A DNA stretch of 64,000 nt from an uncultured Planctomycetaceae bacterium (GTDB taxonomy: Bacteria > Planctomycetota > Planctomycetia > Planctomycetales > Planctomycetaceae). The first letter of the stretch is position 1. The number at the start of each line of letters is the position of its first letter. The position numbers were made by a program, and so were the translations under genes. Below, piece after piece: positions 21,443 to 45,112 of the stretch. The stretch spans positions 64,001-128,000 of the forward strand of contig CAWFGE010000018.1 of NCBI GenBank assembly GCA_963815195.1. Direction: 5' to 3'. Below the pieces are notes generated by a model, which saw only the letters and a list, made by a program, of their open reading frames with translations, was not told the DNA's origin and ran no database searches.

Positions 21443-21914
21443 GGCGATCGCGTTTCCAACAAAAGATGTTGTCAAAATCAGCCGCAGGGCGCTAGGCTGG
21501 GCTGTTAAGAAATTGGTATTGAAGTCTAAAAACGCGGGTTCTGGCTTGCGCCACCTTTGTTCTCGTTTTTTTGGAAAGCATTAGGGCCGAAGGCCCGGCT
21601 CTCTGTCAGCCCAGGGCCAGCGCAGCGCCGCCCTGGGTTACGGATGTAATGAAACGCAAGCCCCAAGGGGGCGGCCCACGTGGCTCTCGCCACGGAACAA
21701 GGCATTGCGGATTTCCGAATTCGGGCCGCCCCGTTGGGGCTTCGGCATTTTGTTCGTTCCCGTTCCCAGGGCTGCGCCCTTATAGGATTTGCTGAGGGAT
21801 GGATCGGCCGCGGGAGAGGGCGGGGGGACGCAAGTCTCTCCCCACGGACTCTTCCGCGCCGGAGCCGATCCAGCGCCGTTTTTTTCCTGTTTTTCCAGCC
21901 CCAACTTTGAGAGG

Positions 21915-22097
21915 ATCAAAATCAGGCACGCGTCGCCCCGCTACGAATCGTGCGCCCCATCGCTTCAACGATTGAGCCCAGACTTTCGAGCGGGACGATG
22001 CTCTTGGGAACCAACGAATCACTCCAGATGATGACGCCAAAACGTCTCGGACTATAAGGTTTTCGCCCGCTCCCAAGATCGCGTGCCCTTTTTGATT
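21915..22097 (+). ncRNA. IS110 bridge RNA (target- and donor-binding loops); transcript probably starts near 21795
   Basis: Closing stem GGCACGCG/CGCGTGCC. Loop 1 has TGCGCCC and AGCCCAG (target); loop 2 has CAGATG and CTATAAG (donor). Each guide pair is separated by a short hairpin. Confidence 0.88.
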
Positions 22098-22127
22098 GTG
22101 TTTCACTTTAACAGGAGACGATCCCCC

Positions 22128-23411
22128 ATGCACTCGAATTTGCTCGACCCCAATGCCTGTGTGCTGATCGGCCTCGATTGGGCCGACCGCGAACATGCCG
22201 TCTGCCGGCTGCTTCCCGACGGCGGAACCGAACACCGGCAACTCGAACACACGCCCGAAGCGATTGCCGACTGGCTCGCCGGCCTGCGGAAGCAATTCCC
22301 CGGTCGCCCGATTCGGATCGCGTTGGAGCAAAGCCGCGGCGCGCTGATGAACGCGCTCCGCCGTTTCGCCGACCTGGAACTCGAACTGTATCCCATCAAT
22401 CCCAAGCAGCTGGCCCGCTATCGGGACGCGATTCATCCTTCGGGAGCGAAATCCGATCCAGACGATGCGCAGCTCTTGGCCCGCTTTCTGCAAAACCATC
22501 AGGAGCAACTCCTCCCGTTCGTGGCGGACGATCCCGAAACCCGCCGCCTGGCCGAGTTGTCCGAACTTCGCCGCAAGCTGGTCGATGACCGCAAAACCCT
22601 TGTGCAGAAGCTCGAAGGCACGCTCAAGCTGTATTTTCCGCAACTGCTCGAATGGTGTGCCGGCAAGAGTCGCCAACCCCTGTTGCTCGCCGTGCTTCGC
22701 CGCTGGCCGAGCTTGGGCGATCTTAAGCGGGCTCATCCCAAAACGCTGCGCACGTTCCTCGCCGAGCATGGCCTGCGGAACCCCGACCAGCAAACCGAGT
22801 GGATCGACAACGTCCGCCCCGCCACCCCGTTGACCGAGGATGCCAGTTTGATCGAACCCCGCGCGATGTACGCCCAAAGTCTCGGCCGGCAAATCGAGGA
22901 ACTGAACGAGGCCATTGCCAAATTCGAGAAGCAACTGGACGAGGCGACCGCCGCGCATCCCGACCACGAACTGTTCCGCTCGCTGCCCGGTGCCGGCGAC
23001 GTCCTCACGCCGCGACTCATCGTGGCGATGGGCTCCGACCGGGACCGCTACCAAGACGCCGGGGACGTGCAATCCAAAAGCGGCATCGCCCCGATCACCA
23101 AGCAAAGCGGGAAGACCCGGCTCGTGTTGTCGCGAATCGCCTGCCCCAAATTTCTCCGGCAGACATTCCACGAGTTCGCCGACCAGGCCCGCCGCTGGAG
23201 CGATTGGTCCCGAGCGTTCTATCAAATGAAACGCGCGGCCGGCATGAGCCACCACGCCGCGGTCCGCGCCTTGGCCTTCAAATGGATTCGCATCATCTTT
23301 CGGATGTGGCAAACCGGCACCCCTTACTCGGAAATGAAGTACCAGGAACAACTCACAATCAGAAACAGCCCCGTCTGGAATTTATTGGAAACAACAACAG
23401 AAACCACCTGA
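22128..23411 (+). CDS. IS110 family transposase/recombinase
   Basis: RuvC-like DEDD (IGLD, IALE, KSDPDDA), coiled coil, C-terminal LPGAG..SGIAP..QSG; AGGAG RBS. Confidence 0.95.
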   Translation: MHSNLLDPNACVLIGLDWADREHAVCRLLPDGGTEHRQLEHTPEAIADWLAGLRKQFPGRPIRIALEQSRGALMNALRRFADLELELYPINPKQLARYRDAIHPSGAKSDPDDAQLLARFLQNHQEQLLPFVADDPETRRLAELSELRRKLVDDRKTLVQKLEGTLKLYFPQLLEWCAGKSRQPLLLAVLRRWPSLGDLKRAHPKTLRTFLAEHGLRNPDQQTEWIDNVRPATPLTEDASLIEPRAMYAQSLGRQIEELNEAIAKFEKQLDEATAAHPDHELFRSLPGAGDVLTPRLIVAMGSDRDRYQDAGDVQSKSGIAPITKQSGKTRLVLSRIACPKFLRQTFHEFADQARRWSDWSRAFYQMKRAAGMSHHAAVRALAFKWIRIIFRMWQTGTPYSEMKYQEQLTIRNSPVWNLLETTTETT

Positions 23412-23658
23412 AACCCACTTGAAAAAACCTCAGATGTCTGGGCTGACAGAGGGCCGGACCTTCGGTCCTTATTTCTCAAATTTGAAACAGTTGAATTTAC
23501 GAACGGTCGAAAAGCTCCGCAAAGACAAATCGTCGTCAACACCAAATTTTTAACGGCCCAGCGCTAGCCCCGGTTCATCGCGCAGGGCGCGTAGTCCCGG
23601 TTCATCGCTGCGCGAACCGGACGCTAGCACATACCGGCTGAGGGACCTTGGATGCCGA

Positions 23659-24770
<1,112 letters not shown>

Positions 24771-24943
24771 TGCGGTGTTCCTTGCGGTGGGAGTTGAATT
24801 GTTATTTGTGCCGGTGACCATGTCCCTCTCCTTGTGTGAAATGCTCCAAAAGAAACAAACGAATAGTATGTTCCTTTACGACTTAACACAAGTGGACATT
24901 CTGGACAAAATTCAAGTTTTTTTGAGAATTCCAAAAAAACCGC

Positions 24944-43100: not shown

Positions 43101-45112
43101 AGGCCGATGCTGCCCGTTCCCGGTCCCACGCGGTGCTCTTCGTTCTTCACCTGCCGAATGCCGCCGGCGTGCTTCTTCTGGACGATCGGCCGCAGCGATT
43201 GCAGCATGTCCTGGAGGGACTGGGCCCGGTAGGGATCGAGCTTCTGCCCCGAGTTGTAACACTTGAGGAAGGCGTCGTAAGCGGTCTCGTAGTCGCCGTC
43301 CTTGAAGTGCTTGAGGCCCTGGTCGAATAGCTCCTTGGCCGTCACGCCGGACGACTGCACCACTCCGGTTTCCGAGTCCGGCGGGGCGGGGGCTGTTTTG
43401 GCAATGTCAAATCGGCCCGGTTCTTCCACCGGCAACGGCGGTTGGGCGGAGGGGCGCGGCTCGCTCGTTCCCGGCGCGGGAAGAGTCGGAAGCTTCGCCA
43501 CCGGTTGCTGCGTTTTCGGTTGAGGCGCGATGGCGGGACGCGGCGCGGCCGGGTGTTCCGGTTTTACCTCCGTCTCGGGAGGAAGCAGATTGGCGATCGG
43601 CTTTTCTTCCGGGAAGCCGGGGGCTTGGATCGTGGGAGCCCGCGGCGCTTCGGGAGCCGCCGGTTGCGTCTTGGCGACCGGCGGGAATCCGGGGAAGCTC
43701 GGAGCCGGTTCCGGCTCGGCGGGCGCCGGCCGCTTATATTGCTCCAACAGAGCCGCCACCGATTGGGGCTTGTCGTCGAAGAGGTCGTATTTGGCGTTCA
43801 GGCTCTTGGCTTCTTGGATTTTGTGTTCGGCGGCGTCGAACCGGGCGGCGCGAATGTCGGCCCGCGCTTCGTTCAACAGCTTCTGAGCTTTATCGTGTTT
43901 GGCGATCTCGGCGGGATCGGGCGGAGCCGGCATCGTCCGCGGACGGATGACGGGAGCCTGCTGCTGCGCCACCGTCTGGGCTTGGGACTCGATGCGATTG
44001 ATGTCCTTCAAGACCAGCTCGGGCGTCTCGTCAAACACGAGATAAACCACGTCCAACTGCTCGGCTTGTTTGATCTTGTCGCGCGCCGATTGAAACCGTC
44101 CCGCATGGGCTTCCTGGCGGGCATCGGCCATCAACTGTTGGGCTTGGGCTTTCTTCCGGTCGTTTTGATTCTTGGGAGCCGGCGGAGCCTCTGGCGGCTG
44201 CCGACCGGCGGCCGCAAACGGATTGCCCATGGGCGCTTTGGGATTCGTGCCGGGCTGGGAATTGCCCGCGGCGAACGGATTTTGCACCGGGGCCTTGGGA
44301 TTGGCGTTGTTGGGAGACCCGGCCGAGGCGAAGGGATTGCCGATTTCGTTTCGGGGCGTGATCGTCGTCGTATTGGATTTCCGCTCGATGTCGGCGAGCA
44401 TTTGCTGGGGGGTTTCTTCAAACAATCCCCAGGCGGCCTTGAGCTTGCTGGCTTCGAGGGCGATGGCGCGGGCCTCGTCGATTCGCCCGGCGTTGAGCGC
44501 CGCGCGAGCCTGGCGGAGAAGCCCCTGGGCTTGCCGCTTCGCCGGGGAATCGGAACCCGGCAGCGTGGGCACCGGACGCGCGGGGCGCTGTTGGAGGGCA
44601 TTCGCCTGTTGGAGGGCATTCGCCTGTTGGGACGCGTCAAAGTCCGGGCCGGCCGCGAGATCCGGAGCGGCATCCTGGTCCGGGGCGAACGGATTGCCGA
44701 GCGCCGCCGGCACGCCGCGCTTGGGAATCGGGCGGCCTTGGACGCGAGCGATGAACTCCGCCGGCCATTCCGCGTTCGGGTTGAGCGGGATGTGCGCCGC
44801 TTGCACCAGGGCGTTTGCCGAGTTCGCAAACCGCAGCGCCGCGTTCATGTTGCCCCGCCGTTCCATCTCGGCGGCTTTTTGCATGAAGTCGTTGACCCGC
44901 GCTCGCTGCGCCGCCTGGAGGCGGTCGTTCTCCGCCGAAGGCGGCCCCCCGAATCCCGGCGGTCCTCCCGCGTTCGATTCCGGTTCGGTTTGAGCCAATA
45001 TGGCTTGAGTGGTTTGCTGGGAACTGGCCCACCAAACCGAAGCAGCGACCACGGTCGCACAAGCGAACAATCCGATTGTCTTGCCCAACGGTAGGTTCCT
45101 CCTACAGGCCAT
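40147..45112 (-). CDS. Giant secretin (T2SS GspD/PilQ-like), frameshift near 41260
   Basis: STN-like [11 protein letters not shown]-domain [28 protein letters not shown]-terminal [39 protein letters not shown]. Confidence 0.85.
40461..40725 (-). repeat. Coding tandem repeats (~27-nt unit, GGGGFGGGQ)
   Basis: Repeated GCCGCCGCCTTGACCGCCGCCGAAGCC units inside the secretin gene. Confidence 0.8.

Follow-up and report, generated by a model that had tools for sequence, protein, structure and literature searches.

The region at positions 21925–22087 of the window (the whole stretch of 64,000 nucleotides that was analysed) very probably bears the guides of an IS110 bridge RNA with the same mode of action as the IS621 one. 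It carries handshake guides of the IS621 type, as had been predicted from the sequence: the first base 3′ of each right guide (21982 in the target loop, 22059 in the donor loop) forms a co-varying pair with position 7 of the other DNA. The complementarities, their co-variation across a clade of orthologous elements and the choice of insertion site are direct observations made here. The mechanism, its directional effect and longer right guides are already published, and the finding will not surprise a specialist. What it adds is a clade of IS110 elements, far from IS621, in which the handshake rule applies; natural variation in this clade shows which handshake base is selected, that at position 7 and not that at position 6, giving a usable design rule. 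Its donor is fixed, its targets are freely reprogrammed and its right guides are naturally 7 nt long, which also makes the clade a tidy source of bridge recombinases.

The element and its genomic copies

Target and donor sites are numbered 1–14 with the core at 8–9, as in the IS621 papers. The element has the following features.

21779–23439, plus strand: IS110-family insertion sequence with a CT core at each end (21779–21780 and 23438–23439); ends identical in 5/5 copies, flanks differing
21772–21785, plus strand: left junction (target positions 1–7, core, donor positions 10–14), from sequence and copies
23429–23444, plus strand: right junction (donor positions −1 to 7, core, target positions 10–14), from sequence and copies
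22128–23411, plus strand: IS110 recombinase of 427 aa (PF01548, 88.9 bits; PF02371, 52.1 bits; NF033542, 171.9 bits, cut-off 140)
21590–23465 (approximate ends), no strand assigned: interspersed palindromic repeat interrupted by the element, with the core in the 3′ arm of a hairpin

The recombinase scores above the cut-off of all three models. Residues E67, D110, D113 and S327 are invariant in 15/15 alignment rows and D17 is kept in at least 90%; this conservation suggests that D17, E67, D110 and D113 form the DEDD motif and that S327 is the catalytic serine. The only solved relatives of the protein are the recombinases of ISCro4, the closest at E 2.1e-09, and IS621 (E 2e-07). In keeping with the shared core dinucleotide, fixed target site and lack of long terminal repeats that mark the IS110 family, CT is found at both ends, all five copies share one 14-bp site, and empty sites carry a single CT. 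The long left end of 347 nt, which holds the RNA, and the short right end of 26 nt place the element in the IS110 group and not with IS1111; a weak imperfect repeat around the donor site is the only sub-terminal repeat seen.

All five copies in the genome lie at the same 14-bp site of the interspersed palindromic repeat, and the region 21925–22085, the junctions and the guides are identical in 5/5. The recombinase gene is unbroken in two copies and frameshifted in the other three, one of which also has a deletion. The neighbouring recA (23659–24821, minus strand) is split over two reading frames, both parts of which match PF00154; this split and the three frameshifted copies may reflect errors in the assembly and not pseudogenes. 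Contig C15 of G000 carries, at about 246460–246544, the orphan right end of a related element. Its donor arm is the same, a small piece of the 3′ end of the gene remains, and the flank that follows is unrelated. The target repeat itself (21590–21780 and 23440–23465 of the window) has inverted arms and tens of copies; both arms have many matches in the genome, and 34 of the 66 matches to the left part span at least 120 bases.

Architecture of the predicted bridge RNA

The RNA and its guides are laid out as follows, all on the plus strand.

21925–22087, plus strand: two-loop core of the predicted bridge RNA (fold z = −3.0 over 21900–22125; consensus fold of 88 orthologues)
21932–21999, plus strand: target-binding loop of the predicted RNA
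22002–22077, plus strand: donor-binding loop of the predicted RNA
21950–21958, plus strand: left target guide; 21951–21957 match target positions 2–8 (sequence and clade-wide matching)
21975–21981, plus strand: right target guide, 7 nt, complementary to the core and 23440–23444; co-variation at positions 9–14
21982–21983, plus strand: target-loop handshake guide, predicted to pair with donor 7 (23437) and 6 (23436) after top-strand exchange
22022–22030, plus strand: left donor guide; 22025–22030 match donor positions 1–6
22052–22058, plus strand: right donor guide, 7 nt, complementary to the core and 21781–21785; tracks core and position-10 changes in orthologues
22059–22060, plus strand: donor-loop handshake guide; 22059 is predicted to pair with target 7 (21778) after exchange, 22060 mismatches target 6 (21777)
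23419–23424, plus strand: candidate −35 box, which in the circle would lie 17 bases before a candidate −10 box at 21783–21788

As in IS621-type bridge RNAs, there are two stem-loops with large internal loops and well-supported stems. In the consensus fold of 88 orthologues 41 of the 48 pairs show changes on both sides, and 3831/4192 cells are standard pairs, the structure having been derived from the same alignment. A conserved A on the four arms is kept in 86, 88, 83 and 68 of the 88 orthologues. The base five after it is U in 83, 79, 81 and 86 of 88 and G in one; the IS621 arm pattern, in which a flipped-out A is followed five bases later by a syn G on all four arms, is not the pattern of this clade. 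The target-loop guides begin 7 bases past the conserved A in 71/83 clusters on the right and 46/74 on the left, which is also the guide start in the target loop of IS621. Left and right guides co-vary with target and donor as in IS621, the left guides matching the bottom strand and the right guides the top strand.

With respect to the candidate −35 box, a TTG stands 16–18 bases from the same place in 29/69 clusters. GC-rich hairpins at 21800–21900, which precede the two-loop RNA in the left end, are possibly the 5′ part of the transcript. A match of this stretch to the Rfam family RAGATH-31 is weak (24.1 bits against a gathering score of 71.8) and is taken as chance, and the Rfam search returned no bridge RNA family. 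Contigs of four DNA runs contain empty repeat sites and no circle joint, a comparison in which contigs cannot exclude such a joint.

Orthologue set

The comparisons below draw on 186 orthologous loci, including 80 of 335 metagenome hits and 77 loci from 567 confirmed genome hits. The protein was matched in 185 of them and an RNA region of at least 170 nt was obtained from 142; the left donor guide could not be parsed in 39 loci and the right end in 22, owing to short contigs or divergence. Five duplicate loci and L067, whose left junction is doubtful, were dropped before clustering, and 137 loci were clustered at 90% RNA identity into 89 clusters, each represented by one locus; L002, which occupies a non-cognate site, was passed over in this choice. 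The left junction is available for 74 clusters, the right for 83 and both for 69. Guide columns were taken from an alignment of the RNA only and compared with the junctions afterwards. The junctions were located by donor-end motifs with one mismatch allowed at donor 6; since these motifs leave donor 7 and target 6–7 free, the handshake tests are not circular; at positions 10–14 the right donor guide matches partly by construction. The recombinase tree was made with FastTree, with six rows less than half filled and three long branches. For the viral loci L176–L186 neither the ends nor the RNA could be parsed with the motifs used.

The handshake base at position 7 is selected

In this element the nonamer at 21975–21983 (AGCCCAGAC) is the exact reverse complement of the right junction at 23436–23444, and the donor-loop nonamer at 22052–22060 is complementary to the left junction at 21777–21785 in 8/9 positions, the mismatch being T22060 opposite C21777. 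Both matches had been reported from the sequence and are confirmed here, as is the observation that the left guides stop matching at or just before the core. The left target guide at 21951–21957 equals target 2–8 (21773–21779), so that the first core base is included and the second fails; the left donor guide at 22025–22030 equals donor 1–6 (23431–23436), with a mismatch at position 7 and a possible U·G wobble at 8.

Could such complementarities arise by chance? The nonamer does occur by chance twice more in the window, at 43974 and 62264, neither time in an element-like context. Among 5000 dinucleotide-preserving shuffles of the 161 nt at 21925–22085, though, a 9/9 match to the right junction turned up in 3 and one of at least 8/9 to the left junction in 8, and co-variation across 74–83 clusters refutes chance as the explanation; its probability is practically negligible.

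The original prediction had proposed comparing the handshake positions across orthologous elements, and in that comparison the first base of each loop (21982, 22059) forms a conserved, co-varying pair. Base 21982 pairs with donor 7 in 83/83 clusters (77 A-T, 5 U-A and 1 C-G; permutation mean 71.7), and 22059 pairs with target 7 in 70/74 (58 G-C, 9 C-G and 3 A-T; permutation mean 49.5). The recombinase tree has 12 changes at target 7 and 10 at its guide base. It offers nine independent pairs with different bases at target 7; on average the guide base changes in step in 7.3 of these, and in 0 does it move the opposite way (sign test, median p 0.016). At donor 7 and at its guide base there are three changes each, too few to test. 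Watson-Crick pairs at position 7 before exchange are found in 3/74 and 2/83 clusters.

The 9/9 match in the prediction suggests that both bases of each handshake dinucleotide carry this function. It is true that 21983 pairs in this element, that 22060 pairs with target 6 slightly more often than under permutation (22/74 clusters against a mean of 15.3; p 0.026, uncorrected for kinship), and that a change at position 167 of IS621 raised recombination about 1.2-fold, according to the available text of PMC11208158. Against selection of both bases, 21983 pairs with donor 6 in 41/83 clusters where permutation gives 40.5, being C in 41 and G in 38 of the 83 opposite an almost fixed donor G, and it changes 13 times on the tree. 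Independent pairs give no sign that 22060 tracks target 6 (median p 1 in either coding), and the co-variation described in the accessible text of PMC11208158 names position 7 only. It is thus unlikely that both bases are selected to pair after exchange: only position 7 co-varies, and position 6 does not. The second base (21983, 22060), whose pairing with position 6 is present in the target loop of this element and absent from its donor loop, appears to be an optional extra to the selected first base.

Further pairings of this kind found no support. A third handshake base would be paired in 12/74 clusters (permutation 16.8). A mirror-image handshake of the left target guide into donor 10–11 is paired in 6 and 23 of 74 clusters, with shuffled maxima of 24 and 21, and one of the left donor guide has a base at position 7 equal to target 7 in 16/69 (permutation mean 16.1). 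When the right guides were followed past position 14, one of 25 donor comparisons and one of 9 target comparisons gave an uncorrected p < 0.02; the pairs in these two are few (16/74 and 21/82) and we do not take them as real. Avoidance of self-pairing at position 6 was not significant, and the top five columns by mutual information with 21983 include no complementary one that could be its partner within the RNA.

In five of the 107 loci that have both junctions (L072, L080, L081, L105 and L108) the donor-loop handshake pair at target 7 is missing. L080 and L081 look like recent retargeting without the matching change in the guide.

Direction of exchange

By analogy with IS621, from which we take expression from a circle-junction promoter, the cut positions, the order of steps and the effect on direction, insertion would proceed as follows. 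The element would circularise, and the junction so formed would set the −35-like box (23419–23424) 17 bases from the −10-like box (21783–21788). The RNA and a recombinase tetramer would bind the target and the circle junction, the target loop opening the 14-bp site in the palindromic repeat and the donor loop opening the circle junction of the element. The recombinase would then cut both top strands after the CT core and swap them. Bases 21982 and 22059, each lying directly 3′ of a right guide and having no Watson-Crick pair with the DNA of its own loop, would pair with base 7 of the incoming strand only after exchange, so that exchange would gain pairs in the insertion direction and lose them in the direction of excision.

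The prediction that the natural RNA favours insertion is well supported by the pair counts. The handshake guides of this element have 0 Watson-Crick pairs before top-strand exchange and 3 after it, the donor loop showing two G·U wobbles beforehand as read from the sequence; across the clade there are more pairs after exchange than before in 66/69 clusters, equal numbers in 3 and fewer in 0. That the handshake favours insertion is the published mechanism of IS621 and is not new here. The available text of PMC11208158 names the handshake guides, describes co-variation at position 7 among hundreds of orthologues and presents structural evidence for the pairs; that of PMC13626964 reports that direction is set by the handshake pairs, of which wild-type IS621 has one before exchange and three afterwards, a pattern it calls highly conserved.

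Some observations fit this model less well. Four of 74 clusters lack a Watson-Crick pair at 22059, and in 66/83 clusters the donor-loop base makes a G·T wobble with its own donor 7, so that the gain in the donor loop is one from wobble to Watson-Crick pair. The available part of the preprint 10.64898/2026.08.31.748434 argues for excision of IS621 by a single-strand route that uses the donor loop only and would bypass the handshake bias. The recombinase is also far from that of IS621 (E 2e-07), and the mechanism is thus carried over a long distance.

The position-7 bases might instead mainly recognise the completed junctions, to allow excision or to hold the product, and not drive the insertion exchange. 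The same complementarity is the pre-exchange state of excision, with the right guides on the top strands of the junctions (PMC13626964, available text), and by sequence alone the two readings cannot be told apart. In IS621, though, the same configuration lowers excision and raises insertion (same source), and nothing in this clade hints at a reversed polarity. We regard junction recognition as a very unlikely primary role and retain the reading that pairing at position 7 would drive insertion.

Comparison with characterised elements

Published systems are cited here from the accessible parts of the papers. The element belongs to the IS110 group and has a bridge RNA, working like IS621 and departing from the IS621 scaffold in two tested details. 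It shares with E. coli IS621 (PMC11208160, PMC11208158, PMC13626964; PDB 8wt6) a DEDD and serine recombinase, the CT core, a long left end with a two-loop RNA and four guides, insertion into a palindromic repeat, and a first handshake base that is A opposite donor T7 and G opposite target C7, with three pairs after exchange. The pairs before exchange number one in IS621 and none here (PMC11208158, PMC13626964). The IS621 protein differs in its length of 326 aa, against 427 aa, with a sequence match of only E 2e-07; its natural right target guide is 4 nt long and that of our element 7 nt; the syn G five after the conserved A is U or C here; and the left donor guide, covering positions 1–8 in IS621, appears to run from donor −1 to 6 or 7 here and never reaches 9. 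In the IS621 structure too the left donor guide stops short of 9, at position 8 (PMC11208158). The right donor guide is unbroken in this element, unlike that of IS621.

ISCro4 (IS622; 10.1101/2025.05.14.653916, PDB 9t56), the best solved relative of the recombinase, follows the same scheme in the published text, with 14-base recognition of target and donor and handshake guides. It differs in its short, IS621-like protein (a chain of 341 aa against 427 aa) and in a natural target that was edited at positions 12–14 to fit the guide; the natural target of our element already does so. ISPpu10 of Pseudomonas putida (10.64898/2026.03.19.712850) resembles our element in a left interface of 6 and a right interface of 5 positions around the CT core, and in a target within a repeated intergenic stem-loop. 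Texts joining the terms IS110, bridge RNA and Planctomycet were not found, and the figures on diverse bridge RNAs by Durrant and colleagues (2024, PMC11208160) could cover the clade.

Left and right guides in target choice

The right guides had been predicted to extend 5 nt beyond the core and to carry more specificity than in IS621. As regards length this stands: the target guide reaches 5 nt past the core and is longer than the natural guide of IS621. Longer natural right guides are already in print, the available text of PMC11208160 describing orthologues with naturally longer right target guides and higher specificity with 7-bp guides. A shift of specificity from left to right is not borne out, since the left guide pairs at positions 2–7 in 57–73 of 74 clusters and separates occupied from empty sites.

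A target specificity resting mainly on the right guide, with a loose left guide, would agree with the 7/7 match of the right guide in this element and in 55/83 clusters, with the mismatches of the left target guide at positions 1 and 9 in this element, and with ISPpu10, where the right guide is the stricter one (10.64898/2026.03.19.712850, accessible text) and from which our element differs in that the left guide visibly decides between copies of the repeat. Site occupancy in this genome speaks against it: among sites perfect at positions 2–14, 5/7 are occupied, and among those with the core, a perfect right half and one left mismatch 0/17 are (Fisher p 0.0005, where the five insertions may not be independent). 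Within the hairpin copies the figures are 5/6 perfect sites against 0/10 with one left mismatch (p 0.0014), and a single site with a perfect left half and one right mismatch is too few to gauge strictness on the right side. Pairing also declines with distance from the core much alike on the two sides. The right target guide pairs at positions 10–14 in 82, 81, 72, 71 and 61 of 83 clusters, and the left target guide at positions 1–9 in 39, 57, 65, 66, 72, 69, 73, 68 and 33 of 74, its register having been chosen on positions 2–7, where shuffled means are 36–54. In eight copies in Stieleria, moreover, right position 14 is matched in only 2/8. A mainly right-sided specificity is accordingly a rather improbable account, and we favour one in which the left guide contributes to the choice of site.

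The left guide reads the hairpin loop of the repeat, and a one-base difference in that loop is seen in most of the empty copies. L002, an element from the same genus (G070), is 93% identical to ours and shares its target guides; it sits in a site that fits neither of these guides. Its right flank matches the right donor guide at 4/5 bases plus a wobble, and it resembles the 'RD-only' class among the half-match events that the available part of 10.64898/2026.08.31.748434 describes together with a donor-only excision route; no other of the 129 loci whose right flank could be read shows this. In L030, L038, L012 and L033 the left flanks fit their own left target guide poorly and resemble the guide of another element, the flank of L030 being that of L029 and the flank of L038 that of L026, as if these elements had moved in trans or been misassembled.

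Core pairing and donor geometry

The right guides pair with the core in 83/83 and 74/74 clusters, and the left target guide with core position 8 in 68/74 and position 9 in 33/74. The left donor guide pairs with donor 7 in 41/83 clusters, with 8 in 29 (38 more by wobble) and with 9 in 0/83, and the core does not lie inside all four guide pairings as the IS621-type scheme would have it. At slot 7 or 8 after the conserved A, the donor loop carries CTC, invariant both in the RNA and at donor positions −1 to 1 (83/83 each); an extra base follows it in 26/83 clusters, this element included. By this sequence match CTC at 22022–22024 may pair with donor −1 to 1 across a one-base bulge, in which case the left donor guide would lie two bases further out, although invariant bases cannot show co-variation. 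Alternatively, 22022–22023 could pair with 22057–22058 inside the RNA (88/88 in the consensus fold), or CTC could reflect the sub-terminal repeat, a weak inverted repeat around the donor that is centred on positions −1 and 14 (uncorrected for kinship).

Taking these details together, the clade, whose recombinases are long (about 420 aa), may have a left donor guide set two bases out (donor −1 to 6 or 7, in some elements, ours included, across a one-base bulge) that releases the core, a donor window of 16 bp against a target window of 14 bp, U in place of the syn G on four arms, one handshake base per loop, and a second exchange or repair that is strand-directed. This joint description is tentative, and we rate it as possible though short of probable. 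The accessible texts on IS110 bridge RNAs mention neither a shifted left donor guide nor U for G.

The strand-directed step concerns the bases at positions 6 and 7. The available text of PMC11208158 places the bottom-strand cuts of IS621 between 9* and 10*, which by our mapping of the IS621 numbering is between positions 6 and 5, and its authors suggest later mismatch repair. Among the 107 loci with both junctions, many of which are copies (69 clusters), donor-type bases at 6–7 of the left junction occur in 0, and the right junction has the donor base at position 7 in 107 and at position 6 in 106; the natural product thus follows the top strand. If true, retention of the top-strand bases at 6–7 despite an outer bottom-strand cut would mean that the second exchange or the repair is strand-directed. 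The same outcome may hold equally for IS621 and not be special to this element.

The second core T, called almost invariant among IS621 relatives in the accessible text of PMC11208158, is replaced in several orthologues that have a CC core (L070, L074, L076, L088, L093, L096, L110, L158, L160, L161 and L170). Both right guides change along with this core, in 7/83 and 4/74 clusters.
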